A stretch of 64,000 nt of DNA from an uncultured Acidobacteriota bacterium (GCA_963830225.1 CAWHLO010000003.1:253812-317811), one strand, 5' to 3'; counted from the first letter of the stretch, positions 14,489 through 30,896 are shown. Notes: generated by a model from the sequence alone, not told the origin. Numbers and translations are program-made.

Positions 14489-14859
14489 GTTGTCATCCCC
14501 TTTTGCTACTTTGCTCCGATTCCGATTGCACATATCAAAAATTTCCTGCAAAATTTCCGCTCCATCGAAATGCTCTTGGACAATTGCCCCACCTCCGATC
14601 GCCCGGCTCTACCTGGAGGCCATGCATTCACCTGCACAGTCAACTCGCCTATGTTGCAGCCGTATTGCCAATTGGCAGATCTCGTTCAGAACCCTTTACA
14701 TAGTGCGGAAGCGGCACAATAATGAATTCAAGTCAGAGAATATGCCATTATCCCTGGTCCGAATCTTTATGCAAGTCCTTGAGAGAATGAGCACGGACTA
14801 CTGCAAAGGCAGCCAGTACTTCTCTGTCGGGTCCCGTAATAAAGTAAGTGAGATTTCCG

Positions 14860-16650
14860 ATGGCTGACTCGATTGAGTGTCACGCGTTGCTCGAAGGCTT
14901 ATTTGACGCCAACCCCGATGTGGTCATCGTGACCGACTGGGAAGGCCGGATCCTCAAAGCAAATTCTCGAATTGAAAGTGTCTTCTGGTATACCGGCACC
15001 GAGTTGATCGGGCTGCCGATTGAAACTCTCATTCCAGAGCGATTTCGGTCCGCGCATCAGGGCAGCCGACAACGATATACCGCAGAACCGCACGATCGCC
15101 CAATGGGCACCCAGTTGAATCTTTGCGGGAGACGGAAAGATGGCATGGAGTTCCCCGTTGATGTGGCGTTAAGCCCGTTCGAAACGAAGGGAAGACGATA
15201 CGTTCTGTGCATGATCCGCGATATCACCGAACGAAAGAAAGCGGAAGAAGCTCAGCGGCGCGGTGAACAATTGCAGGCACTTTTCAGGCAGACATCCGAC
15301 GCTCTTCTCGTAGTCGACACGGAAGGGAAAATTCGGGAAGTAAATCCTCAACTCGAACGTTACTTCGGCTATTCGAGGGCCGAACTGATCGGGCATGCCG
15401 TAGAGATGTTGATCCCCGAAGCGCTTCGTGTGAATCACGAAGCACTCCGGAGGGATTACACAATGCGGCCGCATCCGTCTCCAATGGGATTTGGGAGGGA
15501 GATCCATGGTATCCGCAAGGACGGAAGTCTTTTCCCCGCCGATATCATGCTCACCCCGGTTGAAATTGCAGAAGGCCGGGCCGTGCTGTGCGTCGTCCGG
15601 GATATTTCAGAAAAGATCCGGCTTCAGGAGGAACTGGAACGAAACGAGCGGGAAAGACGCTATTTAGAGAAAGAATTCGACGCCGTCCCCGGCCTGGAGG
15701 GAATTATCGGGAAAAGCGAGGCGTTAAAGGAGGTCATGAGGAAAGTTGAGATCGTCGCGTCGACAGACGCGACCGTTCTCCTTCTGGGAGAAACCGGAAC
15801 CGGTAAGGACGTTATCGCCCGCGCCATTCACCAGCTGAGCCGTCGCAGCCAAAAGAGCCGGATCACTCTCAACTGCGCAGCCATTCCGGCGGGACTTTTG
15901 GAGAGCGAACTTTTCGGACACGAGAAAGGGGCATTCACAGGTGCCACCGAGCAGAAAGTAGGCCGGATCGAACTTGCTCATGGAGGAACACTGGTTCTCG
16001 ATGAAATCGGAGAACTCCCTTTGGAACTGCAGCCAAAACTTTTGCGCGTGTTGCAGGAGAAGATGTTTGAAAGAGTGGGAGGGAGACGCACGATTCCCGT
16101 CGACATCCGATTGATAGCAGCTACCAATCGGGATCTCGGGGAGATGGTCATCGATAAGGAGTTTCGGAGCGATCTCTACTACCGCCTGAACGTCTTCCCT
16201 ATCGTTCTGCCTCCTTTGCGCGAGCGCCGGGAAGATATCCCGATGCTGGTGGAGTACTTCGTCGAAAAGCATGCCAGAAATCTGGATCGGCGCATTGAAA
16301 GGATTCCAACGGAGGTGATGGAAGCACTGGCGCGCTGGGATTGGCCGGGAAATGTGCGCGAACTGGAGAACTTCATCGAGAGATCTGTCATCCTGACAAG
16401 AGGTCCGGAATTGTGGGCGCCTCTGGCGGAATTGACGCGCGCCGAACACACTGTTCCCGACGCACAGGATCCTCCCAATGGGAGTTCGACGCTTGAATCG
16501 ATGGAGCGTCAACATATTCTGTCCGTTCTGCGTGAAACCAGGGGAATCATCTCGGGGCCGCGCGGCGCCGCAGTCCGGCTGGGCATGAAGAGAACGTCAT
16601 TAAATTGGAAATTAAAGAAACTGGGAATTGAACGTAACGACTATATGTAG
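14860..16650 (+). CDS. Sigma54-interacting transcriptional activator with two PAS domains (PAS-PAS-AAA-Fis HTH)
   Basis: Two PAS repeats (LIPERFR..H; RKDG.FP.D/V.L.P); GETGTGKD; ESELFGHEKGAFTGA; LDEIGELP; WPGNVREL; HTH; no receiver domain. Confidence 0.93.
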   Translation: MADSIECHALLEGLFDANPDVVIVTDWEGRILKANSRIESVFWYTGTELIGLPIETLIPERFRSAHQGSRQRYTAEPHDRPMGTQLNLCGRRKDGMEFPVDVALSPFETKGRRYVLCMIRDITERKKAEEAQRRGEQLQALFRQTSDALLVVDTEGKIREVNPQLERYFGYSRAELIGHAVEMLIPEALRVNHEALRRDYTMRPHPSPMGFGREIHGIRKDGSLFPADIMLTPVEIAEGRAVLCVVRDISEKIRLQEELERNERERRYLEKEFDAVPGLEGIIGKSEALKEVMRKVEIVASTDATVLLLGETGTGKDVIARAIHQLSRRSQKSRITLNCAAIPAGLLESELFGHEKGAFTGATEQKVGRIELAHGGTLVLDEIGELPLELQPKLLRVLQEKMFERVGGRRTIPVDIRLIAATNRDLGEMVIDKEFRSDLYYRLNVFPIVLPPLRERREDIPMLVEYFVEKHARNLDRRIERIPTEVMEALARWDWPGNVRELENFIERSVILTRGPELWAPLAELTRAEHTVPDAQDPPNGSSTLESMERQHILSVLRETRGIISGPRGAAVRLGMKRTSLNWKLKKLGIERNDYM

Positions 16651-16875
16651 TCAGTTTTGACGGCATGCCGCCAACGCTTGCCATTACTGTTCCTGCCTGT
16701 AAGCACACTCGAAGCTCCGATCACAACGTAACTCCTATCTTCTGTACCCACCGAAATCGTCATCTCCCGTTCATGCACTTTGGTCTTCGGCATGCACTTC
16801 ATGGTTTCCACGGCTCGTCAGGGCCATGGCCTAAATGAAGCAACCGTCAGATTAGCTACAGACAGGGAGAGACTA

Positions 16876-19491
16876 ATGAAATTGAATGCCGGATTGAGCA
16901 ACAACCATGAGCAGGACGCCACCGCATCCTGCAGCATCGCTCCACCGGACTTTGCGCCCGCAGCGCACACTGCAAATGAAAAATTGAATAATTTTCTCGT
17001 GGCCACAACTTGCGGGCATCGAAGTGGCCACGCCGTTCGACTCCACATGGAGACTGGCTGGACTACGGTTTGCCTCGCTTGCTGGCGTTCCAATCGGCAC
17101 GCTTATCGTTCTCGGGAAAGCCGGCCTCGCACGTGGAAATCCGGAATCCGAAGCAGTCATCTCCCGCAACGGATGCCACAAACGGCAGAGCCATCCGCGC
17201 AGGCCAGCCCCGTAACAGATTTCAAGCGCTGCCTGGTGACAGGAGTTGCGGGATTCATTGGGTCGCATCTCGCAGAAAAGCTGTTGGCCGAAGGCCATGA
17301 AGTGATCGGCATCGACTGCCTCACCGACTATTACAGTTCCGAATTGAAGAACCAGAACCTCAGCGGATTCCTCTTTCATCCCCATTTTTGGTGGGTTCAT
17401 GAGGATCTCAATACGACCGATCTGGCGAAACTGCTGGAGGGTATCGATTGGGTGTTTCACCTTGCCGGGCAGCCAGGAGTGCGAGGGAGTTGGGGAACCG
17501 GCTTTGAACCCTACATCCGCAACAATATCGACGCCACGCAGCGGTTACTGGAAGCGGTGCGGACAAGCGATGTGAAGAAGTTCGTCTATGCGTCGTCTTC
17601 CTCCGTCTACGGACGTACTGCTCCGCCGATGTCCGAATCGAACAGAACTCAACCATATTCACCGTATGGCGTGACCAAACTAACCGCGGAAAACTTGTGC
17701 ATGCTGTATGCTCAGAACTTTGACCTGCCTATCACTGCGGTGCGCTATTTCACGGTGTTTGGACCCCGCCAGCGGCCCGACATGGCCTTTACGCGGTTCC
17801 TGCGCGACCTGCTTGAGAACCGCGAACTGCACATCTATGGCGACGGCAAGCAGACGCGCGACTTCACTTATGTAAGCGACGCCGTAGAGGGAACACTGCT
17901 TGCCGCGCGTCATGGTACTCCCGGCGAGGTGTACAACCTGGGAGGCGGATGCCCGGCAGCGTTAAGTGACGCGATCCGGGCAATGGAGTGCGCCACCGGC
18001 CATCCTGCACGCATGGTCTACACTCCCATGAAAAATGGAGACGTGGTGGACACCCTGGCCGACACTATGAAAGCCCGCGCCGACCTGGGCTACTTCCCCG
18101 CAGTGAGCCTGGAAGAAGGGATCAAGTTGCAGGCTCGCTGGGTTCGGGAGCAGATCGCCCACTCCACGATCGAGCCTCAAATCATGCTTCCAGCTCCGAG
18201 CGTTGAACGCCTCGGGATCGGAAGAGAAGAGTTAGACGATTCTCCAGACTTCCAGCCGCGCGTTCTTCTTTATTCGCATGACACCTTCGGTCTGGGCCAC
18301 CTGCGGAGAAATCTGGCGATTGCCGAGCACCTGCTTTCGCGGAATGATCCGCGTTTTTCCGTGATGCTGTTAACCGGCTCGCCGGTGGCATCATCCTGGC
18401 CGCTGCCCAAGGGACTGCAGGTGAAGGTTCTTCCGCCAGTGGTTAAGACCGGTGCGGAACAGTACGCCCCACGCGGTGGTTCGGAGACATTCGACGCAGT
18501 GAAGGCGAAGCGTGAAGAAGCAATTCTTAACGCAATTCGCGATTACCGCCCTGACATTTTCCTGGTGGACCACGCTCCGGCAGGCATGAAAGGCGAGTTG
18601 CTTCGCCCTCTGGCGTATATCCGCGAGGAAATGCCAGAGACACGCACCGTAATCGGTCTTCGGGACATTCTGGACAGTCCGCAAACTGTGCAACAGCTTT
18701 GGGAAGAACAAGGAATCTATCAGCTTCTCGATGAGTCTTACGACCAAGTGCTCGTTTACGGCAACCGCCGTCTTTTCGATCCCATCCGCGAATACAACTT
18801 CCCCAAAACGGTTGCCATGAAAACGGTGTTCTGCGGTTACATCGCTCGGCGTATCGGCGGCTTTGCAGCTTTCGGTCTCAACGATTGGCAAAAGCGACAC
18901 GACCGGTCCTTTGTTTTGGTCACGGCCGGCGGCGGTGGAGACGGATATGCGTTGATGGATGGCTATCTTCGCGCCCTGGAGAAAATCGGACCCAGCAGTG
19001 CGGAAAGCTTCCTTGTTCCCGGTCCGCTGATGGCCGCGGAGCAGAGGCAAGCCTTGGAATCCGCGGCGGCAAAACGGCCTGACGTAAGGATCATCCACAC
19101 CACGGAACTTGAATCCTTTATCTGGAGAGCGAATCTCATCGTTTCCATGAGCGGATACAACACTACGGCGGAGATTTTAGCGGCGAAGAAGCCCGCTATC
19201 CTGGTGCCGCGCGCGGCGCCGCGGGCTGAACAACGCCTGCGCGCAACGCTGCTGAGCGACTTGGGACTGGCCTCGTCCATCACGCCGGAAGAGGATATGG
19301 TTTCACGCCTGGCCGAACTCCTTCAGGCGGGACTTGCCGGTCAACTTACGCCACATTGCGATTGGAATGCAGTGGACCTGGGCGGTGTGCGTCACGTTGG
19401 AGAGGCGTTGAGTGGTCTCGTCGAAGAACGCATTCGCCGCCGGCCGTATGCCATTTCCAGATTCGAAGATGCAACTGGAGTTGTGGCATGA
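16876..19491 (+). CDS. Fusion: NAD-dependent sugar epimerase/dehydratase + GT-B glycosyltransferase (GT28-like), with Cys/His N-terminal extension
   Basis: LVTGVAGFIGSHL, YASSSSVYG, YGVTK, RYFTVFGPRQRPDMAF; then VLLYSHDTFGLGHLRRNLAIA, VLVTAGGGGDG, IVSMSGYNT, PRAEQRLRA. ATG 16876 has RBS AGGGAG; ATG 17173 is an alternative start without an RBS. Confidence 0.85.
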   Translation: MKLNAGLSNNHEQDATASCSIAPPDFAPAAHTANEKLNNFLVATTCGHRSGHAVRLHMETGWTTVCLACWRSNRHAYRSRESRPRTWKSGIRSSHLPQRMPQTAEPSAQASPVTDFKRCLVTGVAGFIGSHLAEKLLAEGHEVIGIDCLTDYYSSELKNQNLSGFLFHPHFWWVHEDLNTTDLAKLLEGIDWVFHLAGQPGVRGSWGTGFEPYIRNNIDATQRLLEAVRTSDVKKFVYASSSSVYGRTAPPMSESNRTQPYSPYGVTKLTAENLCMLYAQNFDLPITAVRYFTVFGPRQRPDMAFTRFLRDLLENRELHIYGDGKQTRDFTYVSDAVEGTLLAARHGTPGEVYNLGGGCPAALSDAIRAMECATGHPARMVYTPMKNGDVVDTLADTMKARADLGYFPAVSLEEGIKLQARWVREQIAHSTIEPQIMLPAPSVERLGIGREELDDSPDFQPRVLLYSHDTFGLGHLRRNLAIAEHLLSRNDPRFSVMLLTGSPVASSWPLPKGLQVKVLPPVVKTGAEQYAPRGGSETFDAVKAKREEAILNAIRDYRPDIFLVDHAPAGMKGELLRPLAYIREEMPETRTVIGLRDILDSPQTVQQLWEEQGIYQLLDESYDQVLVYGNRRLFDPIREYNFPKTVAMKTVFCGYIARRIGGFAAFGLNDWQKRHDRSFVLVTAGGGGDGYALMDGYLRALEKIGPSSAESFLVPGPLMAAEQRQALESAAAKRPDVRIIHTTELESFIWRANLIVSMSGYNTTAEILAAKKPAILVPRAAPRAEQRLRATLLSDLGLASSITPEEDMVSRLAELLQAGLAGQLTPHCDWNAVDLGGVRHVGEALSGLVEERIRRRPYAISRFEDATGVVA

Positions 19492-20759
19492 GAAATCAGG
19501 CACAAGGTAAGATCGCTTACGTTCTGAAGCGCTATCCGCGCCTCTCTGAGACGTTCATCCTGAACGAGGTTCGCGCTCTGGAGCGATTAGGAACAAAACT
19601 ACACATCTTCTCGCTGATGCAGGCTGAGGGATCGCTCACCCATCCAACGGTCCAGGAGGTGCATGCGCCGGTTACCTACTTTCCGGCGCAGTGGTTTGCC
19701 GCGGCTGTTGCAGTGGTCAAGGCACATGTGCAGATGGCAGCCTGGGCTCGCTCGCGCTACCTGCACGCGACCCTGCTCGCTCTTTGGTGGTCAGTGAGGT
19801 CGCGCCGGCCGCAGAGCGTGTGGAAACAATTCCTGCGTTCCGGCTACGTGGCCATGGGCTGCCGGCAGCACAGCATCCAGCACCTTCATGCCCACTTCGC
19901 CAACGCGCCGGCCACCGTCGCGCGTCTGGCGGCCGTCATATGCGACATCCCGTATAGTTTCACGACGCATGCCAAGGACCTTTACCTAACACCACAGAAG
20001 GTAATGCGGCGGCGGATTTCGTCGGCACAATTCGTCCTGACATGCACACGCTACAACCTGCAATATCTGCGCGGCTTCGCTCGTCCCGAAGACCGCGACA
20101 AGATACATCTGGTCTACCACGGCATCGACCTTACCGAGTTCGCCTTGCCCTCGGCGCGGAGCGAAGGCGCAGTGAACGACGGTGACGACGAGGACGCGCC
20201 ACTGATTCTGTCAGTCGGACGGCTCGTCGAGAAAAAAGGCATGCCCGACCTTATTTCCGCCTTTCACCTGTTGACACAGCGCGGGGTGCGATTTCGCAGC
20301 GTAATTGTTGGAGAAGGACCGCTTCGGGGACAGCTTGAAACGCAAATCGACAATCTACGCCTGGGCCATCGCGTAAAGCTGCCGGGAGCGATGGCTCATG
20401 ATCGCCTGGTTGATTTCTATGAGCAGGCCAGCATATTTGCTCTTTCTCCACGTGTCACGGAAAACGGGGATCGAGATGGAATTCCGAATGTCCTCGCCGA
20501 AGCTATGGCGTCTGGGGTTCCGGTAGTAACCACGTCTGTGTCGGGAATTCCGGAGTTGGTAGAAGACGGCAAGACAGGGTTGCTGGTTGACGCCAAGGAT
20601 CCAGAGGCGCTGGCTGCCGCCATCGAACGCCTGCTACGCGACGTGGCACTCAGGCAGAAACTGGCCGTTGCCGCCCGGCGCAAAATCGAAACCGGCTTCG
20701 AATGCTGGGAAACCGCGAAAGCATTGCGCGTTTTGCTACCGGCGGGTGTTCAGGCATGA
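19488..20759 (+). CDS. Glycosyltransferase family 4 (WcaL-like)
   Basis: YVLKRYPRLSETFILNEV, HLHAHFAN, SFTTHAKD, VGRLVEKKG, DRDGIPNVLAEAMASG; ATGA overlap with upstream gene. Confidence 0.92.
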   Translation: MRNQAQGKIAYVLKRYPRLSETFILNEVRALERLGTKLHIFSLMQAEGSLTHPTVQEVHAPVTYFPAQWFAAAVAVVKAHVQMAAWARSRYLHATLLALWWSVRSRRPQSVWKQFLRSGYVAMGCRQHSIQHLHAHFANAPATVARLAAVICDIPYSFTTHAKDLYLTPQKVMRRRISSAQFVLTCTRYNLQYLRGFARPEDRDKIHLVYHGIDLTEFALPSARSEGAVNDGDDEDAPLILSVGRLVEKKGMPDLISAFHLLTQRGVRFRSVIVGEGPLRGQLETQIDNLRLGHRVKLPGAMAHDRLVDFYEQASIFALSPRVTENGDRDGIPNVLAEAMASGVPVVTTSVSGIPELVEDGKTGLLVDAKDPEALAAAIERLLRDVALRQKLAVAARRKIETGFECWETAKALRVLLPAGVQA

Positions 20760-22003
20760 AAATCGCTTACTTATGTGCAGATCGCGGCGTGCCCGTTCTG
20801 GGCCACAAGGGCGCGTCAGTGCACGTGCGTGAATTTGTCAGCGCGCTCGCAAGACAGGGGCATGACGTCGTGCTTCTCTGCGCGAAGCTGGGCAGCGGGA
20901 ATGACTGTCCACCTGTTCGAGTGGTTGAATTGCCACCGGAGAAAAATCGTGCCACTTTGATTGCAGAGGGCGCCATGCTCGGTTTGGCGGGCGTGGAAGA
21001 GGACCCAATTCTCTTCCGCGAAGTGGAAAAGTTGGCCAACGACCGGCAGCTTTCCGCGCGTGTACTCGAGTCGCTACACCAGCTTGGCTTCAGGCCAGAT
21101 GCGATCTACGAACGTTATGCCCTTTTCCACCGCGCCGGCAATGAGATCGCAAATGCGCTGCGAATCCCTCGCATACTGGAAATGAATGCGCCCCTGGTTG
21201 AAGAACAGGAGCGTTTCAGAGGGCTGCGTTTGAAACGCATTGCCGAGGAGGTATCCCGCGAATCATTGCGCGGCGCGAGTCATATCATCGCTGTCTCAGC
21301 AGCGGTGAAAGAGGCGGCAGTGGCCAGCGGCGTGGCGGCTGGACGCATTAGCGTAATGCCGAACGGCGTGGATACCACGCGGTTCCATTCCGGAGCGGGC
21401 GAAGGATTGATTCGCGAGCGCTATGGGCTGAAGAGCAATCCAGTAATCGGCTTCATCGGCAGTCTGAAGCCTTGGCATGGCCTGGATTTTCTGCTCGATG
21501 CTTTTGAGGAGATACACTCGGCGCGTCCTGATGCTGTGCTCATGATCGTTGGCGACGGCCCGGGCATGGCCGCTTTGCAGTCGCGAGTCGCGCAAGAGAA
21601 CCTCCAGGAGCGCGTCATCCTCGCTGGGCACGTTCCGTACGCTGAAATCCCCGCTTACCTCTCGGCGATGGATCTGACGGTTGCTCCCTACGATGCACAG
21701 GACGGTTTCTATTTCTCGCCGCTGAAGGTAGTGGAGTCGCTCGCGGCGGGCTGCCCGGTAGTAGCACCTGAGCTCGGACAGATATCGGATCTCATCCAGA
21801 ACGGTTTGACTGGACTGCTGTATCCGCCCGGGGATTCAGCGGCTCTCGCCGGCCAGGTGATCGAACTACTGAACGATGCGCAACGGCGCGGAGAAATGGG
21901 CTGTGCGGCGGCGGCGGTGGCGAGGGAGAAATTTTCCTGGGATAAGAACGCACAGTATGCAGTCGAGCTGATGAGCCAACTGTCGCTGCAAGAGGTCCGC
22001 TGA
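20756..22003 (+). CDS. Glycosyltransferase family 4
   Basis: MKIAYLCAD..GASVHV, YERY, GFIGSLKPWHG, FYFSPLKVVESLAAG; ATGA overlap. Confidence 0.92.
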   Translation: MKIAYLCADRGVPVLGHKGASVHVREFVSALARQGHDVVLLCAKLGSGNDCPPVRVVELPPEKNRATLIAEGAMLGLAGVEEDPILFREVEKLANDRQLSARVLESLHQLGFRPDAIYERYALFHRAGNEIANALRIPRILEMNAPLVEEQERFRGLRLKRIAEEVSRESLRGASHIIAVSAAVKEAAVASGVAAGRISVMPNGVDTTRFHSGAGEGLIRERYGLKSNPVIGFIGSLKPWHGLDFLLDAFEEIHSARPDAVLMIVGDGPGMAALQSRVAQENLQERVILAGHVPYAEIPAYLSAMDLTVAPYDAQDGFYFSPLKVVESLAAGCPVVAPELGQISDLIQNGLTGLLYPPGDSAALAGQVIELLNDAQRRGEMGCAAAAVAREKFSWDKNAQYAVELMSQLSLQEVR

Positions 22004-23898
22004 TGGAAGCCAATCTCCACTCGAAGGATCGCGCGTTCTCCTTATGGACGCTTCGCCGATACTTGCGTCCCTACTTGCCTGAGTTGACCACTGCCGCCAG
22101 TTTGATGACGGCAAGATCGGTCTTTCTGCTTTTTGCACCCTGGCCATTGAAGCTGATCCTCGACAGCGTAATCCTTCGCAAGCCGTTGCCATGGTGGGCA
22201 GCGGGACTCTTGCCGAACCCGCTCACTCACCGCTTTGCTCTGCTGGAGTACCTGGGCACTGCCCTGCTCTTTGTGGGGATTGCCGACGCCACATTGGCCT
22301 ATCTGGGCAACCGGCTGCTGCTGCGTACCGGACAGCGCACGGTTTTCGATATTCGTCGCGATCTCTTTGCACACATACAGAGGCTTTCTCTGTCATTCCA
22401 CCGCCGACAGAGAGCCGGGGACCTTATGTCCCGGCTCGGTGGAGACATTCAGACTCTCCAGAACTTTGTTGTGGGAATTGGAACCGGCCTATTCGCGCAT
22501 GTTCTCACCATGGCAGGCATGGTCGCCATCATGTTAATGATCGACTGGCGTTATGCGCTTGTCGTGCTGGCCGCTGCGCCGGTGCTGCTTCTCCTTGTAC
22601 AGAATTATGCTACGAGGCTGACGAAGGCCTTGCGCCTGGCCCGAAGGAAAGAGGGCGAGCTTTGGGGCAAGGTTCAAGAGGTCATTTCCAACGTTCACCT
22701 GGTGCAAGCCTACGGCCGCGAGACTCACGAAGACGATCGCTTCGCCGAACAGGCCGGACTGTCGCTCGATGCGACCCTGGAGGCCAGCGAGTTGCAATCG
22801 CAATTCACTCCTCTGATAGGTTTGGTGATGGCCTTGGCCACAGGAGTTGTGGTCTGGTACGGCGCCGTTCAAGTTCTTGCCGGAAAGATTACGGCAGGAG
22901 ATCTTCTCGTCTTCCTCGCCTACCTGCGAGGCTTGGCGACTCCAGTCCGTCAGATTGCCAAAATGGCCGGCGTGATGGGGAAATCGTCTGTTGCGGCAGA
23001 ACGCATCGGGGATGTGTTCTCGGCGGAGTCGGAGATTCGTGAACCATCCAATCCTCGAGTCGCAATTTCTTGTGCAGGCAGCGTCGAATTCCGGTCTGTA
23101 GATTTTGGATACTTTCCCGGGGCACCGGTGCTGCATGACATTTCGTTCCGTGTCGAGTCCGGCCAAACCATAGCTTTAGTAGGATCGACGGGCGCGGGCA
23201 AGAGCACGCTGGTCAGTCTCATCTCCCGCTTCTATGATCCGGCATGCGGCCAAATCCTTCTGGATGGACATGACCTGCGGGAAATGCCGCTGGCATTTGT
23301 GCGTAACCAAGTGGCACTAGTCCCGCAAGAGGTTCTGGTCTTCCACGGCTCCGTCTGGGAAAACATCGCCTACGGCCGTGCCGGCGCTGGTCGCGAGGAC
23401 GCAATTACAGCGGCGCAAGCGGCGGGAATCCACGACCGCATTGCACGCTTTCCCGATGGCTATGACACCGTTGTGGGCGAGCGAGGTATGACCCTCTCTG
23501 GCGGACAGCGCCAGTGCCTTTCAATTGCGCGGGCGATGCTGCGAAATGCTCCCATCGTGATTCTGGACGAACCGACAACGGGTTTGGATGCGAAGACTGA
23601 GCGCATCGTGGCGGAGGCTTTGCGCCGTCTCACCGAGGGGCGCACGACTTTTGTGATTGCACATCGTCTCGCCACGATAACGGCGGCCGACCGCATCCTC
23701 GTGCTTGAACGCGGACGGTTAGTACAAACGGGGACGCACAAGCAGCTTTTGCAGGAGGAGGGCCGGTATCGCCACCTCTGGATATCTGCGTTTGGCGGAG
23801 CACCCCCAATCGCTTCGCAAGAGAGTTTTGACGAGTGTCTACCGTGGCCGGCAGAGGTTGACGCTCCTTTGGACAATGCAACTTTGACGCGCGCATAG
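22003..23898 (+). CDS. ABC exporter, fused permease/ATPase (MsbA-like)
   Basis: TM domain then GSTGAGKST, LSGGQRQ, IVILDEPT; TGATG coupling. Confidence 0.93.
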   Translation: MEANLHSKDRAFSLWTLRRYLRPYLPELTTAASLMTARSVFLLFAPWPLKLILDSVILRKPLPWWAAGLLPNPLTHRFALLEYLGTALLFVGIADATLAYLGNRLLLRTGQRTVFDIRRDLFAHIQRLSLSFHRRQRAGDLMSRLGGDIQTLQNFVVGIGTGLFAHVLTMAGMVAIMLMIDWRYALVVLAAAPVLLLLVQNYATRLTKALRLARRKEGELWGKVQEVISNVHLVQAYGRETHEDDRFAEQAGLSLDATLEASELQSQFTPLIGLVMALATGVVVWYGAVQVLAGKITAGDLLVFLAYLRGLATPVRQIAKMAGVMGKSSVAAERIGDVFSAESEIREPSNPRVAISCAGSVEFRSVDFGYFPGAPVLHDISFRVESGQTIALVGSTGAGKSTLVSLISRFYDPACGQILLDGHDLREMPLAFVRNQVALVPQEVLVFHGSVWENIAYGRAGAGREDAITAAQAAGIHDRIARFPDGYDTVVGERGMTLSGGQRQCLSIARAMLRNAPIVILDEPTTGLDAKTERIVAEALRRLTEGRTTFVIAHRLATITAADRILVLERGRLVQTGTHKQLLQEEGRYRHLWISAFGGAPPIASQESFDECLPWPAEVDAPLDNATLTRA

Positions 23899-24089
23899 AT
23901 AGGAGAGGGTCAGCTTCACGCGACGAACATGGAACGATGAATCTCTCGCAGCCTCACCGTTCTTTCTTCAACAGCAGAACCAATGGATATGTTGTGCTGC
24001 GGCTGTAACTGACCCACGTCCAAGTGGCTTGGCACCAGCCTCAATCACACGAAGAAACGCAGGCAGCGCAGGCTGCATAGGAGCAAGGA

Positions 24090-25394
24090 ATGAGAAAGAT
24101 AGCAGTTTTTGGAGTGGGCTACGTTGGATTGACAACCGCTGCCTGTCTTGCGGAACTAGGACATCGCGTCACAGGTTATGACGTGCAGGAGACGAAGGTC
24201 GAGGGGCTTCGCAACGGACAGATGCCGTTTGTCGAACCTGAACTTGGGCCGCTGGTCTCACGCCACGTCTCGACGGGACAGCTCACCTTTACTGCGAACA
24301 TCGGAGAGGCTCTGGAATCCGCTGAGATGGCATTCGTCTGCGTGGGTACGCCTATGGGACCAACAGGAGCTGCCGACTTATCGCAGGTGGAAGAAGCCTT
24401 GCGGCAAATTGGCCGCCAGGTAACCCGCAGCCTCGTTGTCGTATTGAAGAGCACCATCCCTCCCGGCGGAACCGCCGATCGGTTCGCAGAAATCCTCTCC
24501 GGCGAGTTGCGACCGCCGGCAACCGCTCACCTTATTGTGAATCCTGAGTTTCTGCGCGAAGGTTCGGCCGTCCATGATTTCTTTTGTCCGGATCGTGTTG
24601 TCGTGGGCGCGTGGAACCGCGTTGCCGCCGAGCAGGTTGCCGGCCTGTATGCTCCTTTGGGCTGCCCCGTTGTGTTAACTGATCCTGCCAGCGCACAGCT
24701 GACGAAATACGCAGCCAATGCGTTCCTTGCCACCAAGATCTCTTTCATCAACGATGTCGCCCGCATCGCGGAAGCGGTAGGCGCGAACGTCCAGGCGGTT
24801 GCTCAAGGAATTGGTCTGGATGCGCGCATCGGCGGGGACTTTCTTGAACCCGGTCTGGGCTACGGAGGTTCCTGCTTCCCCAAGGACGTACGCGCGCTCG
24901 CCGCTGTCGCCAGTCACAACGGCTACGATTCTCCGCTTCTGCGAGCCGTAATGGATATCAATGCAGGTCAACGCCGCCTTGCAGTTGAGAAGCTTGGCGC
25001 CGTACTTGACGGAGTGGACCGCAAGAAGGTCTGCGTGCTGGGGCTCGCCTTCAAGCCAGATACCGATGACGTGCGGGAAGCACCCGCACTGGACATCATC
25101 GCGAGACTCTGCGACCAGGGTGCGACGGTGCAGGCATACGATCCGGCAGCCAAAGCAACCGCAGAGAAAGTCCTGCCTGCGCACGAGCGCTTGCGTTACT
25201 GCAGCGACGCTTATGAAGCGGCTGAAGACAGCGACGCCATCTTTATCGCAACCAACTGGCCGGAATTTCGAGACCTTGACTGGCAACGCATCGGTTCAGC
25301 GATGACCGCCAAAACCGTCGTCGACGGCCGCGGAATGCTTTCCGCGTACCACATGAACGAAATGGGATTTAGTTACTTCGGATTTGCCGTTTGA
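24090..25394 (+). CDS. ugd: UDP-glucose 6-dehydrogenase
   Basis: GVGYVGL, FVCVGTP, VLKSTIPPG, NPEFLREG, KYAANAFLATKISFIN, YGGSCFPKD, GLAFKPDTDDVRE. Confidence 0.92.
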   Translation: MRKIAVFGVGYVGLTTAACLAELGHRVTGYDVQETKVEGLRNGQMPFVEPELGPLVSRHVSTGQLTFTANIGEALESAEMAFVCVGTPMGPTGAADLSQVEEALRQIGRQVTRSLVVVLKSTIPPGGTADRFAEILSGELRPPATAHLIVNPEFLREGSAVHDFFCPDRVVVGAWNRVAAEQVAGLYAPLGCPVVLTDPASAQLTKYAANAFLATKISFINDVARIAEAVGANVQAVAQGIGLDARIGGDFLEPGLGYGGSCFPKDVRALAAVASHNGYDSPLLRAVMDINAGQRRLAVEKLGAVLDGVDRKKVCVLGLAFKPDTDDVREAPALDIIARLCDQGATVQAYDPAAKATAEKVLPAHERLRYCSDAYEAAEDSDAIFIATNWPEFRDLDWQRIGSAMTAKTVVDGRGMLSAYHMNEMGFSYFGFAV

Positions 25395-25437
25395 TGCCGA
25401 CTTGCCTAGGTTGGCATCCACTTGGAAGCACAACGCC

Positions 25438-26301
25438 ATGAAGATGAGAGTGAGACTTTGTGTTTTGATCCTGGCCGGGTGCCTGAGCGGGCCCGCCTTG
25501 CCGCTGCGCGTGATGGCGCAGACGCTGCCCCCCGCCGGCTTAGGCAAGGTCAAGATGGAAACGCGTTTCTATCATGCCAACAGCGTATTCTCTTCCACGA
25601 ATTTTGATGTCCAGAAGCTTCCCAGCAAGAAAACCGTTACCGGGAGACTGACAAAGATCGTCGGCGAATACGGACTGAACTACAATTGGGCCCTCCTGTT
25701 CCGTGTTCGGTTTGCTTCGGTGGACAAAACAAAAAAAGCGAAAACCTCAAGCGCATTTGGTTTGCAGGATCAAACCATCGGACTGGAACGTGGATTTCGA
25801 CAGGAAGAGGCTTTCACCGAAGCCGTGGATTTCAAGGTGATCATTCCCACCGGGTCCACGACAAGTGTCCCCCAGCTCGGCACGGGCCATTGGGCCATCG
25901 AGCCAGACTATGGATTCGGTTTCGCGCATCATTTTCACCGACGGTTTGTATACGCCAATTCATGGTTCGGCACACGCATCTTCCCAGATAGCGGTGCTAC
26001 CCAATTGCGTATAACTTCGGAGACCGGGGGGCGGGCGTTTTCAAAGGTGAATGCCTTTGGCACCTTATTCCTTTCGCGAAACCTGGAAGGCGGGGATCCC
26101 ACAGCAACGGGGGGAATTCCAAATGCTACCGAAGTCTACAACTTATTACGGGTTGGCGGAGGAGTAGAGTTTGCCAAATGGAAATCGGTACGGCCAATGA
26201 TCGCGTACCAGACAGACGTTGCTGGACAAGGCATTCACGCCGGTAGCAGGATCGTGGTTGGTATGACAATGCATATTGGCCGCGTCCGCCGGCCGTACTG
26301 A
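25438..26301 (+). CDS. Exported hypothetical protein, probable outer-membrane beta-barrel (COG4313-like)
   Basis: Signal peptide; amphipathic strands; GLQDQTIG..., KVIIPTG...LGTGHW.IE pattern; family assignment is an inference. Confidence 0.5.
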   Translation: MKMRVRLCVLILAGCLSGPALPLRVMAQTLPPAGLGKVKMETRFYHANSVFSSTNFDVQKLPSKKTVTGRLTKIVGEYGLNYNWALLFRVRFASVDKTKKAKTSSAFGLQDQTIGLERGFRQEEAFTEAVDFKVIIPTGSTTSVPQLGTGHWAIEPDYGFGFAHHFHRRFVYANSWFGTRIFPDSGATQLRITSETGGRAFSKVNAFGTLFLSRNLEGGDPTATGGIPNATEVYNLLRVGGGVEFAKWKSVRPMIAYQTDVAGQGIHAGSRIVVGMTMHIGRVRRPY

Positions 26302-26309
26302 GGTTGCAG

Positions 26310-26888
26310 ATGGGATCAACGTTGTTTCTGGTGCGCCACGCAGAGACCGAGTGGAACAGGGCGGGGCGTTACCAGGGGCAAAGCGATCCTCCATTGTCCG
26401 CGTACGGTGAAATGCAAGCAAAGCACTTGGCCAGTTCCATGGCGTCCATTCACGTCTCCGCGGTGCTTACAAGTCCGCTGCAGCGCGCCAGGAAGACTGC
26501 GGTTGCTTTGGCGGAACGCACCGGCCTTGCCGCCGTGAGTGACGATCGGTTGATGGAACTCGCCTATGGCCAATGGGAGGGTCTGACTCAAGCGGAGGTC
26601 AAGAGCAGATGGCCGGAACTTTTGCGATTGTGGAAGAGAGCGCCCGATCAGATAAGATTCCCCGGCGGAGAGACCCTTCATGATCTTCGATGCCGAGTGC
26701 AATCGTTTCTCTCGGAGGTGGCACGGCAGCCCGGTCCTGTTCTCGCCGTCACGCACGAAGCCGTGATTCGGATTGCCATCCTGGAAGTACGTGGTGAGCC
26801 TCTTTCCGAGTATCGTCGTGTTCATGTCGCAAATGCTTCGGTCACGCCGATCCCTTTGCGCGCAAATCGTCTTCCTCAGTGCCATTGA
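26310..26888 (+). CDS. Histidine phosphatase family protein (PGM/CobC-like)
   Basis: LVRHAETEWN...QGQSDPPL, TSPLQRA, ELAYGQWEG, PGGET, VTHEAVIR. Confidence 0.9.
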   Translation: MGSTLFLVRHAETEWNRAGRYQGQSDPPLSAYGEMQAKHLASSMASIHVSAVLTSPLQRARKTAVALAERTGLAAVSDDRLMELAYGQWEGLTQAEVKSRWPELLRLWKRAPDQIRFPGGETLHDLRCRVQSFLSEVARQPGPVLAVTHEAVIRIAILEVRGEPLSEYRRVHVANASVTPIPLRANRLPQCH

Positions 26889-27049
26889 GTATTCCTGGCC
26901 ACTAGCAGATTCAATTCGTGCCTGTGCCTGAGCGTATCTTCGAATCGGCTGTCACAGCGTCAATCAACAGGTCGATTCGAGTTAATGACGAGAGACGGTC
27001 TGGCAACTCTGCGAGTATCCCGCGCCCAATCGGCTCGGGAACAGAAAGC

Positions 27050-27260
27050 GGTGTATGCGGAACAGATCACCGGAAAACACGCTGCCTCCTGCAGGCATTG
27101 GCTCGACCAGAATGTTCGCTGGATCATCACGCCTGTGGAAAAGCAGGCTATCCAGCGGTTCCGCAGCGATCAAGAGCACGATTTGTTCACCCGCCAATTC
27201 TGGGAGCTGTGCAACCCACCCCCGTATGCATGGCTTCCTTCCGGTTCCTCATTTAAATCC
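27050..27260 (+). pseudogene. GWxTD-domain gene remnant
   Basis: HWLDQNVRWIITPVEKQAIQRFRSDQEHDLFTRQFWELCNP matches the N-terminal half of the GWxTD domain; similarity is lost before the GWxTD motif. Confidence 0.65.
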
Positions 27261-27622
27261 ACGCCTTCTCAATGTCTACGGATGTCCAGAAATGTCTATT
27301 TCCGCAAGAGACTTGCGCTCGTTTTTGAAACTGTTCAACAGTCTCTGTTGAAGCGGAGTGGGCACTCAGTCGAGCGTACTTGTTTCAAGGTCCTACGCTC
27401 TCAGTCGAGACGATGGTTCGCCAGCCGGCAGATCCAGTTCAATCCCAAGTCCAAATGTAAATCGATGTATTGTTATACATTGTTGTGCAAATCGCAGACA
27501 TAATCCTGCCTGCCTTTTTCGCGGCGGTAGCGGCGGAGTCTTTTCCAATCGAAAGATGAGCCTGAAGGAGTCGAAGGGGAGTGGGAAGCGGGGCTCCTTT
27601 CTGAGTGGAGGATGAAGACACA

Positions 27623-28723
27623 CTAGTGTCCTGAGTCATTAATTCGCTTACAAAAGCGAGTGACGGAATCGAGAATCTGGTCTGCTGTTTTATGCCAGAT
27701 AAAGGGTTTTGGGTCGCGGTTGTGGTGTTCGATGAAGTCGTTGATGGCGGCTTTTAGTTCTTTGGTCGAGCGATGGACGCCGCGTCGAAGCCGGCGTTCT
27801 GTGAGCAGGGCGAACCAGCGTTCCACCAGGTTCAACCATGAGGCAGAGGTGGGCGTGAAGTGAACATGGAAGCGGGGCCGTTTCAGCAGCCAATTCTGAA
27901 TCAGCTTGGTTTTATGCGTTCCGTAGTTGTCCATGATGAGGTGGACGTCCAGTTCTTCGGGCACGTTCTTCTCGATGGTGTCGAGGAAGCTGCGGAACTC
28001 TTCGGAACGATGGCGTTGCTGGTTCTGGCCTATGATCTTGCCAGTTTTGGTGTCCAGCGCGGCAAACAGGCTGGTGGTGCCGTGCCGCGCATAGTCGTGG
28101 GTGCGGCGTTCGACCTGCCCAGGTCCCATGGGCAACAGCGGCGCGGTTCGATCCAGAGCTTGTATCTGCGACTTTTCATCCACGCATAAGACCAGCGCGC
28201 GCTCCGGAGGGTTCATGTAAAGCCCCACGATGTCGCGCACCTTGTCGATAAACAGCGGGTCTTTGGATAACTTGAACGTCTCGGAGCGATGCGGGGCCAG
28301 AGAAAAGGCGCGCCAGATGCGGCTGATCGCGGTCTGGTTGATGCCTGTAGCCTGTGCCATCGTACGGGTTGACCAATGGGTGGCAGCGGGCGGCTTGCTC
28401 TCCAGCGTGCGCACGATGACTTCTTCGATCTGAGCATCGCTCAGTTTGCGTGGCTGTCCGGGACGCGGCTCATCGAGCAGTCCATCCAATCCCCGCTCAT
28501 CAAACCTGCGCCACCATTTACTGACCGTTTGAATACACGCATGCGTTTCTGTAGCGATGGCCGTAGCGGTCAGTCCCTCGGAGGCGCGCAATATGATCCG
28601 TGCTCGCATCGAAAGCGCCTGCGCGGTCTTCCTCCTCCGCGTCCAACCCTGCAAGGTACTGCGCTGCTCCTCGCTCAGTTCCAACTTCGGCAAACGGCGT
28701 CCTCGTCTCATGACCTCGCTCAT
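27623..28723 (-). CDS. IS630-family transposase
   Basis: HTH region ([21 protein letters not shown]); triad [27 protein letters not shown]; frame intact. Confidence 0.95.
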
Positions 28724-28779
28724 GTCATGTTAGACGCTGCTTGTCGATAAATGTGTAATGAATTAATGACTCAGTACAC
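27626..28779 (-). mobile_element. IS630-family element
   Basis: TIRs GTGTCCTGAGTCATTAATTC / GTGTACTGAGTCATTAATTC (1 mismatch), flanked by duplicated TA within CTAG. Confidence 0.93.
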
Positions 28780-28795
28780 TAGCAGCAGTAGCCGT

Positions 28796-28844
28796 GGGGA
28801 GGGAATGTGGGAATCAGCTTTATCGATTTCCACATTTCCTCCCC
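28796..28844. repeat. 20-bp-stem imperfect palindrome in the 3' non-coding part of the outer IS
   Basis: GGGGAGGGAATGTGGGAATC-agctttatc-GATTTCCACATTTCCTCCCC. Confidence 0.85.
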
Positions 28845-28860
28845 CAGGCCGCGGCGTGTT

Positions 28861-30096
28861 TCACGCACTTCTCCGGAGCTGATCGAAGAGCTTTGTTTTG
28901 GCCTGCTGCATGCGCACGGCGGCTTCGGTGTCGCTGTGCGCCTGGGCGACCCGCAGCAGAGCATTCGGAGTTAATCCGGGGCGCAGGTACTGGGCCGGAT
29001 TGTGCAGCGCCAACAGCGTTTCCAGCGGAGTTTGATAGCGCCGATAGCGGATGCGTTTGCGGCCGTTGGGATCGATGGAGACATCGGGCTGTGCGCAAGG
29101 GCGATGGTAGTTCAGGTAAGGGTTGAGGAAGTCGTGATAGAAGCCGTTGAGCCGCTGGCCATGGCTGGCGTCGATATAGCCATAGCCGATGTGCTTGCGG
29201 ATGATGGAACCGTTCTTGGTCTCCCCCAGGCCGTTATCGTTGGAATGGCGGGGCCGGCTCTTGGTCTGCCCGATGCGCAGCTTGTCGAGCAGGCGGGCCA
29301 CGGTCTTGTTGAGGAACTCGCTTCCGTTGTCGGAGTGAAAGCCCTGGATGCGGAAGGGGAACTGGCGCAGCATAGCCTCCAGCACCGGCTCTAAAAAGGT
29401 CTCTGCGATGCGCGGCGTGGCCACCACGATCTGCCACTGGGTGACTTCGTCGACAGCGTTGATGTGGTAAACGCCCTTGGCATCGGGGCGGTCACCCTGA
29501 TGCACGGTGTCGACGCGGAGAAAGCCAGGCTGGCCGGAGGGGTCGGGCCGACGCCGCTCGCCGATGGACACAGCGGCGGGGCGAGTTCGGGTGTAGGTGC
29601 GCAGCCGTTCCCGGTAGCGGCTGCTCTTGCGCAGGTTGTAGAGATGGGCGACGGAGATCGCCGACAGGCGCTCAAAATCAGCCTTGCCGAAGACGCGATA
29701 CTCGCGTTCCAGGATGCGCCGCGTGGCCGGCCCGGCCAGGGTGCCGTGCGCCTCGTCGACTTGAGCCAGCAGCTCCGTGTCCGCGCGCGTGTAGTGCGTC
29801 GCGAACCGATGCCGCCGATACTCGGTCACGGGCACGCGCCCCGTGGTCATGTAGCGGGCGATCAGCCGCGTCACCTGGGCCCGGCTCAGGCCGGTCATCT
29901 TTTCCATGTAGCGCCGCAACAGACCCCGCGCCGCCTTGCCCTGCGTCGCGTACTGCTGCCCCACCAGGACCTGCTCCATCCAGCCATATACCTCGGCCCG
30001 ATGCCTGCCCTGGAACTGGAGACCTTCGCTGGCTGCTACGAACCGGCGGATCTCCTCCATGCTCAACTTCTCTGCCTGATACACGCGGATGTTCAA
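28861..30096 (-). CDS. Integrase-core (rve) DDE transposase
   Basis: GLSRAQVTRLI (HTH), FLRVDTVHQGD, FHSDNGSEFLN, NDNGLGETKNG, YLNYHRP. Confidence 0.9.
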   Translation of the reverse strand: MNIRVYQAEKLSMEEIRRFVAASEGLQFQGRHRAEVYGWMEQVLVGQQYATQGKAARGLLRRYMEKMTGLSRAQVTRLIARYMTTGRVPVTEYRRHRFATHYTRADTELLAQVDEAHGTLAGPATRRILEREYRVFGKADFERLSAISVAHLYNLRKSSRYRERLRTYTRTRPAAVSIGERRRPDPSGQPGFLRVDTVHQGDRPDAKGVYHINAVDEVTQWQIVVATPRIAETFLEPVLEAMLRQFPFRIQGFHSDNGSEFLNKTVARLLDKLRIGQTKSRPRHSNDNGLGETKNGSIIRKHIGYGYIDASHGQRLNGFYHDFLNPYLNYHRPCAQPDVSIDPNGRKRIRYRRYQTPLETLLALHNPAQYLRPGLTPNALLRVAQAHSDTEAAVRMQQAKTKLFDQLRRSA

Positions 30097-30150
30097 TCCC
30101 CAGCATGCCTTACCCCTTCAGGCTCATCTTGTGCTGGAAGAGACTGGCGG

Positions 30151-30178
30151 TTGCGATCGAAGAGATTTGTGTTATGAT
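30151..30178 (+). promoter_or_regulatory. Putative sigma70 promoter for upxY-like gene 1, abutting the IS target duplication
   Basis: TTGCGA-N16-TATGAT with extended -10 TG. Confidence 0.4.
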
Positions 30179-30347
30179 CGCTCTTGCCGAGGTTCTAAAC
30201 TCTGGTTTCACCAGGTCCAGAATTTACACAGACATAACATCACATACGCAAGACCCTTGTTGCATCGCTTCCCAGACACTTGTCTAACTTACGATCGTCA
30301 TCGCAAGAGGAAAGCTGTGACTAACTCCCCCGAGGGTATTCGTGAAG

Positions 30348-30896
30348 ATGCTTATCAAAGAAATGCCATGGCATGTCCTGCAGGTACGTTCGAATTACGA
30401 AAAGCGAGTTGCTAACCTTCTGACGGTACGTGAGATAGAAAGCTACGTGCCGTTTTACCGGGAGCGCACGAGGTGGACGGACCGAACGGTCATGACAGAG
30501 CGGCCGCTTTTTTCCGGATACGTCTTCGCCCAACTCCCGTCCCGCTCCAGGACTACCGCTCTCACCACCCCCGGCGTAGTGCGCTGGCTGGGTGATGGGG
30601 AGAGGAATCTGGTAAGCCACGCCGAGCTTGACGAGATCCGTAAAGGACTCGCCAGCGAGAAGATGCTACGGCCGCACCGCGGCGTGGCCAAGGGGACGTG
30701 GGTGCGGGTGCGCCGCGGCTTGTTCGAAGGATATGAGGGAATTGTCGAAGAGTTCCGCCAAAACTGCACCTTGATCCTAACCCTTGCCGCCGTACAACGA
30801 AGCATCTCGCTGCAGGTTGGATGCGAAGAAATCGAAGTCGTAGGAAATCCGCCTCGTCACGCCCAATCGCAAGCGCAAGTTTATGGAGCCGCATAA
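30348..30896 (+). CDS. NusG-paralogue transcription antiterminator (UpxY/RfaH-like), copy 1
   Basis: PWHVLQVRSNYEKRV...PLFSGYVF (NGN domain); VRVRRGLFEGYEGIV (KOW). Confidence 0.88.
   Translation: MLIKEMPWHVLQVRSNYEKRVANLLTVREIESYVPFYRERTRWTDRTVMTERPLFSGYVFAQLPSRSRTTALTTPGVVRWLGDGERNLVSHAELDEIRKGLASEKMLRPHRGVAKGTWVRVRRGLFEGYEGIVEEFRQNCTLILTLAAVQRSISLQVGCEEIEVVGNPPRHAQSQAQVYGAA

Follow-up and report, generated by a model that had tools for sequence, protein, structure and literature searches.

A conserved operon in an uncultured Acidobacteriota bacterium with predicted functions in the synthesis and export of a uronic-acid glycoconjugate

The DNA analysed here, hereafter the window, is a stretch of 64,000 nucleotides from an uncultured Acidobacteriota bacterium (GCA_963830225.1 CAWHLO010000003.1:253812-317811), and all positions are counted on it. 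Sequence of this organism is also found in soil, salt-marsh and mangrove metagenome DNA runs, and a search of RNA runs gave none that contains it. Seven co-directional genes on the plus strand are packed between positions 16876 and 26888, an operon predicted to direct the synthesis and export of a glycoconjugate. An earlier note, made from the sequence alone, had proposed these seven open reading frames (ORFs), and ORF listing and translation gave the same layout and coordinates. The genes encode three glycosyltransferases (GTs), an ATP-binding cassette (ABC) exporter, a nucleotide-sugar dehydrogenase, a predicted outer-membrane protein and a phosphatase, as follows.

16876..19491, plus strand: gene A, 871 amino acids (aa), comprising a mini-domain, an epimerase and a GT28/MurG-like glycosyltransferase
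19488..20759, plus strand: glycosyltransferase GT4a (PF00534/PF13692)
20756..22003, plus strand: glycosyltransferase GT4b (PF13692/PF00534/PF13439)
22003..23898, plus strand: ABC exporter (PF00664 and PF00005)
24090..25394, plus strand: Ugd, with three UDPG_MGDP_dh domains
25438..26301, plus strand: predicted outer-membrane barrel, with a signal peptide and an AlphaFold2 model and without a Pfam or NCBIfam family
26304..26888, plus strand: histidine phosphatase (PF00300, 1.2e-57), likely start ATG 26310

Translational coupling of the first four genes, already proposed from their overlaps, can be read off the sequence: the stop of gene A and the start of GT4a have a common ATGA at 19488-19491, GT4a and GT4b a common ATGA at 20756-20759, and GT4b and the ABC gene a common TGATG at 22001-22005. 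Further downstream, the ABC and Ugd genes are separated by 191 nt, the Ugd and barrel genes by 43 nt, and the barrel and phosphatase genes by 2-8 nt, so that the spacer at 23899-24089 is the sole sizeable gap within the operon. The comparison locus for substitutions is L084, a relative with 97.5% DNA identity. Substitutions relative to it are dominated by the third codon position in all seven genes, which indicates that every one of them is under purifying selection. The spacer differs from L084 at 11 of its 191 positions, or about 5.8%, where the overall figure is about 2.5%, and, because its divergence exceeds that of the coding regions, it fits a non-coding segment that possibly holds an internal promoter.

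Gene A is a triple fusion of an N-terminal Cys/His mini-domain, a UDP-glucuronate 4-epimerase of the short-chain dehydrogenase/reductase (SDR) type (PF01370 Epimerase, 5.5e-59) and a C-terminal GT28/MurG-like GT-B glycosyltransferase (PF04101 Glyco_tran_28_C, 3.6e-07). Among solved structures, that of the Bacillus cereus enzyme UGAepi (6ZL6, E 8.8e-84) is closest to the epimerase domain, followed by MoeE5. Aligned in BcUGAepi numbering, the domain keeps GVAGFIGSH, S/T126 (Ser here), Y149, K153 and GPRQRPDMAF with R185, and it shows all the marks of a UGAepi enzyme, that is, an extended SDR, the GxxGxxG motif, the S/T-Y-K triad and Arg185. The latter residue binds the carboxylate of UDP-galacturonic acid (UDP-GalA) in BcUGAepi (PMC12338863). 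On strong homology, the domain should therefore convert UDP-glucuronic acid (UDP-GlcA) into UDP-GalA. The GT28/MurG-like half carries the SHDTFGLGHLRR motif and matches only the C-terminal GT28 domain, with MurG, MGT and MJ1255 as distant kin; neither a close solved structure nor an NCBIfam equivalog was found for it. Epimerase-GT28 fusions also occur in P0040, P0061 and P0078, where they begin directly at the Rossmann fold, and such fusions recur independently. The fusion of both domains in several lineages makes the product of the epimerase the probable substrate of the GT28-like domain.

The 99 residues ahead of the epimerase (window 16876-17172) match a 112-aa ORF located directly upstream of an Acidithiobacillus GT28 gene (E ~1e-12 to 1e-15), and the mini-domain is 42-47% identical to stand-alone proteins of 59-112 aa. 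Its core, which differs from L084 at three positions, all synonymous, is the following.

17011..17097, plus strand: Cys/His mini-domain core, C-G-H-x-[ST]-x-H-x-[VM]-R-x7-W-x3-C-x2-C-[WY]-R-x2-R

A non-coding extension with a start at 17173 is ruled out by the matching Acidithiobacillus ORF and the stand-alone homologues, and the start at 16876, as first annotated, is right since the extension is coding and matches conserved stand-alone Cys/His proteins. The mini-domain has no Pfam family and, from its ligand pattern alone, looks like a zinc ribbon. An exhaustive search of 1.84 billion representatives recovered nine mini-domain clusters, eight of them stand-alone (59-112 aa) and one an 845-aa fusion, and a hidden Markov model detects the domain in only a few of the ~95 loci. 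In three independent contexts, the cluster opens with the stand-alone mini-gene, which shares 4 nt with the epimerase-GT28 gene after it; the mini-gene precedes epimerase-GT28 genes in L092-L095 and GT28 genes in Acidithiobacillus (L006 and L090). This distribution is that of a predicted accessory part. Examples of the stand-alone genes are given below.

L090:9663-9998, stand-alone mini-domain gene
L092:8001-8255, stand-alone mini-domain gene
L094:2719-2964, stand-alone mini-domain gene

Both GT4 products are predicted retaining GT-B enzymes, and both remain under every NCBIfam equivalog cutoff. GT4a has a WcaL/EpsE-like N-terminus (YPRLSETF), its best NCBIfam match is EpsE (205 bits, cutoff 400), and it resembles WcaL, TuaC, PglJ and PglH, while the solved structures closest to GT4b are HepE (Alr3699), PimB' and GlgM. 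Other matches of the GT4 enzymes are sucrose-phosphate synthase (SPS, 6KIH), MshA (3C48) and BshA. The exporter is a half-transporter with fused transmembrane and nucleotide-binding domains, of type IV (ABCB/MsbA/Sav1866-like), with Sav1866, TmrAB, TM287/288 and MsbA as solved relatives and with MsbA_rel (459 bits, cutoff 780), then MsbA, as best NCBIfam matches. Its identification as the lipid A flippase MsbA was rejected, given 439 bits against the 602 of TIGR02203 and a location in an accessory glycosyltransferase operon; judged by homology and context, it is a type IV exporter that acts in the manner of MsbA without being MsbA.

The translation of Ugd contains the catalytic Cys motif GGSCFPKD and its three domains, and the score of 474 bits against TIGR03026 (cutoff 190) is that expected of a UDP-glucose 6-dehydrogenase. 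We infer its specificity for UDP-glucose (UDP-Glc), because the 460 bits reached against the TuaD-like model do not attain the equivalog cutoff of 700; strong homology indicates that it would oxidise UDP-Glc to UDP-GlcA. With Ugd above the cutoff for nucleoside-diphosphate (NDP)-sugar dehydrogenases and the UGAepi domain of gene A, the operon would supply both UDP-GlcA and UDP-GalA. The earlier expectation that Ugd and an epimerase yield UDP-uronic acids is thus upheld by homology (UGAepi E 9e-84, conserved residues, and the Ugd score).

The protein encoded at 25438-26301 has an N-terminal signal peptide and a possible lipobox (LAGC), no Pfam match even at E<=10 and no NCBIfam family, and a search of 5.8 billion proteins gave no more than 41 homologues. 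The AlphaFold2 model built with the 41-sequence alignment (pLDDT, the predicted local confidence, 83.2; pTM, the predicted template modelling score, 0.78) is all-beta with 12-13 strands, and it was used instead of an earlier model from 12 sequences, which was unusable (pLDDT 50). The Foldseek ranking is headed by the COG4313 channel Pput2725 (4RL8, template modelling score 0.61-0.65), followed by FapF and then by 12-stranded acidic-sugar porins of the KdgM/NanC type (VhGalP, NanC), at 8-16% sequence identity to the solved structures. One of 12 barrel homologues matches PF13557 at 4.6e-07 and two family members match it weakly, the window protein not at all at E<=10. The predicted lumen face, assigned by strand parity and not by model coordinates, holds 19 R/K against 8 D/E, and K39, R43, R91, R180, R191, R238, R252 and R271 are conserved on it.

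All members of the barrel family that were looked up lie inside the cluster; in L087 and L088 the barrel gene overlaps the ABC gene by 4 nt, and the ABC-barrel and barrel-phosphatase junctions overlap or abut. The gene is present in 16 of the 20 close diderm loci and in none of the seven monoderm loci (Actinomycetes, Chloroflexi). Because the family is confined to the cluster among the contigs checked and absent from the seven monoderm loci, the model argues for a dedicated outer-membrane barrel of about 12 strands. Structure prediction, Foldseek and the exclusive cluster context thus bear out a putative barrel and possible dedicated channel, as had been suggested from the sequence. The protein is similar in predicted fold and size to COG4313/PF13557 (Pput2725), FapF and KdgM/NanC, and its basic lumen recalls that of acidic-sugar porins, but it differs from these in lacking a Pfam model and in lying in an export rather than an uptake context, which is new for the fold class.

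The last gene of the operon encodes a predicted cytoplasmic branch-1 histidine phosphatase of the His_Phos_1 superfamily with intact RH...H motifs, whose start is more likely ATG 26310, following the L084 gene call. The nearest solved relatives are 4IJ5 (a metal-independent phosphoserine phosphatase), PhoE and 4PZ9 (the glucosyl-3-phosphoglycerate phosphatase GpgP, E 5e-18 only), and the closest kin are thus the small-molecule phosphomonoesterases PspA, PhoE, GpgP and CobC. The protein tests as none of CobC (155 bits against 163), PspA (150 against 350) or GpgP, and its gene context is that of neither cobalamin nor serine biosynthesis. A larger homologue, a histidine phosphatase of 377 aa with a C-terminal extension of ~160 aa without a Pfam match, is encoded at L089:7506-8639, in a variant with the order YdjC-GT28-GT28'-GT4-ABC-phosphatase-epimerase-barrel.

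The conservation of this gene set was surveyed with one genome per species, in which 576 relatives of the GT28-like domain were confirmed and 80 loci were kept; the family itself is large, with more than 5,000 proteins at E<=1e-10 among the 8,000 candidates scored. Synteny counts were taken from tblastn with the window proteins, in loci with at least 7 kb downstream, because greedy ORF clustering of 90 loci was noisy in high-GC genomes. The close group, defined by a GT28 domain at least 49% identical, includes Acidobacteria gp2, Sulfuriferula, Burkholderiales, Acidiphilium, Acidocella, Rhizomicrobium and Nevskiaceae. The counts of loci with each partner gene are as follows.

Close loci, n = 20: GT4a 20, GT4b 19, ABC 20, barrel 16, phosphatase 16, Ugd 11
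Actinomycetes and Chloroflexi, n = 7: GT4a 7, GT4b 6, ABC 7, barrel 0, phosphatase 2, Ugd 5
Desulfobacterota, n = 30: GT4a 30, GT4b 8, ABC 5, barrel 0, phosphatase 21, Ugd 0

GT4a comes after the GT28-like gene in every one of the 57 loci with enough flank. Acidobacteriota and many Proteobacteria (Acidithiobacillus, Acidiphilium, Acidocella and Sulfuriferula among them) share the syntenic order GT28-GT4-GT4-ABC-barrel-phosphatase(-Ugd), and one Acidithiobacillus locus has a gene order identical to that of the window. Order and coupling are kept in the Acidobacteriota, in Beta-, Gamma- and Alphaproteobacteria, and in Actinomycetes, Chloroflexi and Desulfobacterota; the order recurs in at least six phyla, and synteny holds at 30-70% protein identity. 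The recurrence of the partner genes in the 20 closest loci supports the reading of the genes as a functional unit. The earlier note had also mentioned, as unverified, that glycosyltransferases of the SHDxxGLGH type co-occur in other phyla with GT4, ABC and phosphatase genes, and the locus survey verifies this. Identities of 60-70% between proteobacterial and acidobacterial proteins, and the presence of the rare mini-domain in Acidithiobacillus as well, point to horizontal transfer of the whole module.

Several variants of the cluster are seen. The position of Ugd changes, the gene following the phosphatase or overlapping the ABC gene in other loci, and the Desulfobacterota core is GT28-GT4-(GT4)-phosphatase, with a second GT28-like gene, a DUF2334 protein and a MacB-type ABC as extras. 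In Manganitrophus, Blastocatellia, Ignavibacteria and Escherichia coli plasmids, APH-family kinases and a heparinase-like protein occur in place of the phosphatase or in addition to it. The E. coli variant (L086, NZ_CP012501.1, 159889-170067) comprises GT28-GT4-GT4-ABC, two APH-family kinases, a porin of the AlgE-like "alginate export family" and a nucleotide-sugar dehydrogenase; 18 of 5,426 complete E. coli genomes carry it on plasmids, always with generic annotations, and in strain 08-00022 it lies ~3 kb from the heat-stable enterotoxin gene sta1 on the same plasmid. The L086 variant also adjoins an IS630 transposase. A distant variant at 33% identity, redA (GT28-like, "membrane-anchored protein")-redB (GT4)-GT28', resides on Rhizobium and Sinorhizobium megaplasmids (L081, R. 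etli CIAT 652 pA; L085, S. meliloti pSymB ~806 kb), where a large ABC protein follows the second GT28-like gene and an adenylate cyclase and a Crp-family regulator flank the genes. A secreted protein of ~160 aa without a Pfam family, which has no counterpart in the window, is encoded directly upstream of the GT28 gene in several proteobacterial loci, preceded in L087 by the gene of a BBP2-like putative porin (365 aa).

L002:9157-9648, ~160-aa secreted protein
L004:4778-5260, ~160-aa secreted protein
L005:4649-5158, ~160-aa secreted protein
L087:2604-3071, ~160-aa secreted protein

The neighbouring genes in the window include a candidate regulator, two transposases and a gene pair that bears on the interpretation below.

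14848..16650, plus strand: PAS-PAS sigma-54 enhancer-binding protein (PF00158 and two PAS domains), directly upstream of gene A
27623-28723, minus strand: IS630-like DDE_3 transposase
28861-30096, minus strand: rve-family transposase
30342-30896: NusG-family paralog (PF02357)
30926-32383: Wzy_C/O-antigen-ligase-family membrane protein, behind the NusG paralog and outside the operon

The sigma-54 activator possibly regulates the operon, a weak link: activators of this kind also lie near the cluster in L002, L004, L005, L013, L043, L082 and L087, and upstream regulators vary by locus, with two-component systems, GGDEF/EAL proteins and Crp-like proteins. No -24/-12 promoter with at most 2 mismatches was found in 16651-16875, matches over the whole window being at chance level; sigma-70 promoter and terminator scans gave results at or under the shuffle expectation, and no riboswitch or small RNA matched Rfam at E<=0.1 in 12000-31000. 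Both transposases belong to a 2,615-bp insertion (27532-30146) relative to L084, with the phosphatase gene on one side and the NusG-like gene on the other. In L084, which is free of this insertion sequence (IS), the NusG/Wzy_C pair lies ~0.85 kb downstream of the operon and a second NusG paralog ~5 kb further; the pair stands beside the cluster only in the window and L084 and is absent from the gene lists of the other contigs checked. A larger extracellular polysaccharide (EPS) island is ruled out by the neighbours, which are GH31, a TonB-type barrel, FG-GAP/ASPIC, TPR, rhamnosidase and Tad-like genes. Two paralogous proteins of ~438 aa without a Pfam family (7899-9212 and 13169-14488) flank the FG-GAP/ASPIC and TPR genes, all of them upstream of the sigma-54 activator.

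Comparison with described systems gave no curated NCBIfam equivalog, the sole match above a cutoff being that of Ugd to the generic NDP-sugar dehydrogenase subfamily model. No defined product for the cluster was found in NCBIfam, Pfam or the papers searched, in agreement with its earlier description as an operon of unknown product, and the public annotations seen are all generic. Pfam and NCBIfam scans of the seven products found no Wzx, Wzy, polysaccharide co-polymerase (PCP; Wzz/Wzc) or outer-membrane polysaccharide export (OPX; Wza) domain, as the earlier note had remarked for Wzx, Wzy, Wzz and Wza. Its term "self-contained" calls for a caveat: no acceptor-forming or initiating enzyme was identified, and a Wzy_C gene lies nearby. 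Group 2/3 capsule systems (KpsMT-KpsED) do not fit either, the exporter being a fused type IV protein and the operon having no KpsE-, KpsD-, KpsS- or KpsC-like domains. Neither does synthase-dependent EPS production, with no GT2 domain, 45 bits for PelF, and a barrel that is not AlgE-, BcsC- or PgaA-like. For XrtA/PEP-CTERM systems, the glycosyltransferases stay below stp3 (TIGR04063, 162 bits against 442) and stp2 (TIGR03088, 127 against 409), the upstream activator below PrsR (350 against 503) and the TPR protein below PrsT (134 against 312), a window-wide exosortase search not having been made.

Some partial similarities are nevertheless seen. Export by PglK/Wzk or NdvA/ChvA also combines soluble GT-B enzymes with one fused ABCB exporter and no Wzx/Wzy, and the scores (PRK13657 glucan exporter, 357 bits; PglK, 156 bits) are all under their cutoffs, but the operon contains no GT2/GH94 glucan synthase or initiating phosphoglycosyl transferase, and it has a histidine phosphatase and a 12-stranded barrel that those systems lack. 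The pathways of SPS and its phosphatase SPP, GpgS/GpgP and MshA/MshA2 similarly place a GT4 beside a dedicated small-molecule phosphatase (GpgP being a homologue); they make cytoplasmic solutes or cofactors with one glycosyltransferase, whereas the operon has three, supplies UDP-uronates and also encodes an exporter and an outer-membrane channel. The tua (Bacillus teichuronic acid) genes and the HepA/HepE genes of the cyanobacterial heterocyst envelope polysaccharide share a TuaD-like Ugd, GT4 enzymes (TuaC, 108 bits) and a HepA-like ABC protein (376 bits), with all scores far under the equivalog cutoffs; tua uses a TagO-type initiator and the Wzx-type TuaB, and both tua and Hep lack a GT28-like enzyme, a phosphatase and a barrel. 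The msbA2 operon of S. meliloti (SMb21188-21191), in which an MsbA-like ABC protein exports an unidentified glycan (PMC3687685), is alike in concept only, with glycosyltransferases and an MsbA-like exporter. It was rejected as a counterpart, as tblastn finds only the ABC protein (29%) and no homologue of the GT28-like enzyme, GT4a, phosphatase or barrel. The operon thus appears to be one of ABC-exported glycoconjugate synthesis with unusual fixed parts, namely a GT28-like enzyme, a histidine phosphatase and a 12-stranded basic barrel; further unusual features are the fusion of an epimerase to the GT28-like enzyme in some lineages and the occasional Cys/His mini-protein.

The account that we favour, tentatively and at somewhat short of an even chance, is that a phospho-primed, GalA-containing short glycan is made in the cytoplasm, dephosphorylated, exported by the ABC protein and released via a dedicated outer-membrane pore. 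Ugd and the epimerase domain would supply UDP-GlcA and UDP-GalA in the cytoplasm, the GT28/MurG-like domain would use the UDP-GalA made by the adjoining epimerase, and the two retaining GT4 enzymes would add two more sugars. The first transfer at least would be made onto a phosphorylated, non-polyprenol acceptor, whose phosphate the soluble histidine phosphatase would then strip, as in the synthesis of sucrose-6-P, glucosyl-3-phosphoglycerate and GlcNAc-inositol-P. A homodimeric type IV ABC exporter would carry the product over the inner membrane and a 12-stranded barrel with an arginine-lined lumen would pass the anionic product over the outer membrane, the Cys/His mini-domain acting as an accessory subunit. 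A phosphorylated small-molecule acceptor is favoured because Pfam and NCBIfam found no initiating phosphoglycosyl transferase, polyprenol-pathway gene, Wzx, Wzy, PCP or OPX in the operon and because a phosphomonoesterase with GpgP-type kin is kept across phyla. The AlgE-like porin of the E. coli variant, which belongs to a class of polyuronate channels, suggests an anionic, water-soluble cargo. Some points weigh against this proposal: the chemistry is deduced from homology; the charge of the lumen depends on strand parity rather than on model coordinates; MurG-, PimB'- and MsbA-like relatives act on lipids; kinases take the place of the phosphatase in some variants; about one in five of the close loci lacks the phosphatase, and about one in five the barrel; and the best structural match of the barrel is the COG4313 channel, for which hydrophobic cargo was proposed by its authors (PMC4493636).

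An unlikely alternative is a glycolipid product: the three glycosyltransferases would place a GalA/GlcA trisaccharide on a membrane lipid (diacylglycerol, phosphatidylinositol-like or other) that the MsbA-like ABC protein would flip and the barrel receive or insert. The lipid or lipophilic acceptors of MurG, MGT and MGD1, the nearest relatives of the GT28 domain, are in keeping with it, as are the MsbA_rel and MsbA matches of the exporter, the PimB' matches of the GT4 enzymes and the hydrophobic substrates proposed for the closest channel structure. It is hard to see, however, what a soluble histidine phosphatase would do on a diacylglycerol acceptor; the predicted lumen is also polar and strongly basic, the E. 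coli variant has an AlgE-like porin, no periplasmic lipid carrier is encoded and the glycosyltransferases have no evident membrane anchor. GlcA-diacylglycerol is made by GT4 enzymes in Agrobacterium and plants, which is also counted in favour of a lipid acceptor.

Quite improbable, in our judgement, is an undecaprenyl-pyrophosphate-linked oligo- or polysaccharide, initiated by a WecA/WbaP-type enzyme encoded elsewhere, elongated by the three glycosyltransferases, flipped by the ABC protein in the manner of PglK/Wzk and ligated by Wzy_C to lipid A-core or protein. The type IV ABC half-transporters PglK and Wzk flip lipid-linked oligosaccharides, and PglK scores 156 bits here; moreover, GT4a resembles WcaL, TuaC, PglJ and PglH, and the Wzy_C gene with its NusG-family antiterminator lies close to the operon in IS-free L084. 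That pair, nevertheless, adjoins the cluster only in the window and the near-identical L084 among the contigs checked, no initiating transferase was found in any locus, and the conserved phosphatase and dedicated barrel would be left unexplained. That the phosphatase, Ugd and barrel genes are housekeeping genes that stand beside a GT/ABC operon by chance has very little going for it: the phosphatase comes close to CobC (155 bits, cutoff 163), and Ugd shifts position between loci and is preceded by the 191-nt gap, but chance is largely refuted because synteny holds across phyla at 30-70% protein identity, and the barrel family is found inside the cluster only, with the 4-nt overlaps and abutment of L087 and L088.

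The phospho-primed proposal can be carried further, to a small galacturonate glycoconjugate route that has a phospho-metabolite, conceivably the Cys/His protein, as primer, uses an ABC protein and an arginine-lined barrel with no polyprenol carrier, OPX or PCP, and has spread horizontally, a combination that we consider doubtful. If it is true, the module has spread among acidophiles, soil Acidobacteriota, sulfate reducers and enterotoxigenic E. coli plasmids, and its product could be, for example, a metal-binding or envelope-conditioning uronate compound. Glucuronate-Fe(III) complexes occur in the EPS of Acidithiobacillus, and a link of the cluster to this chemistry is speculation; the product might possibly explain uronic-acid-dependent surface chemistry of acidophiles.

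The GT28-like family is large and travels with constant partners in the loci examined, partners that have no curated name or product. Knowledge of the product would annotate the homologues found in genomes from soil, acid mine drainage and marine sediment and on enteric plasmids, and would define both the substrate of an orphan histidine phosphatase and a function for a new family of 12-stranded outer-membrane channels. The module is widespread, uncharacterised and experimentally tractable, with the plasmid variant of E. coli as a suitable model for laboratory work.

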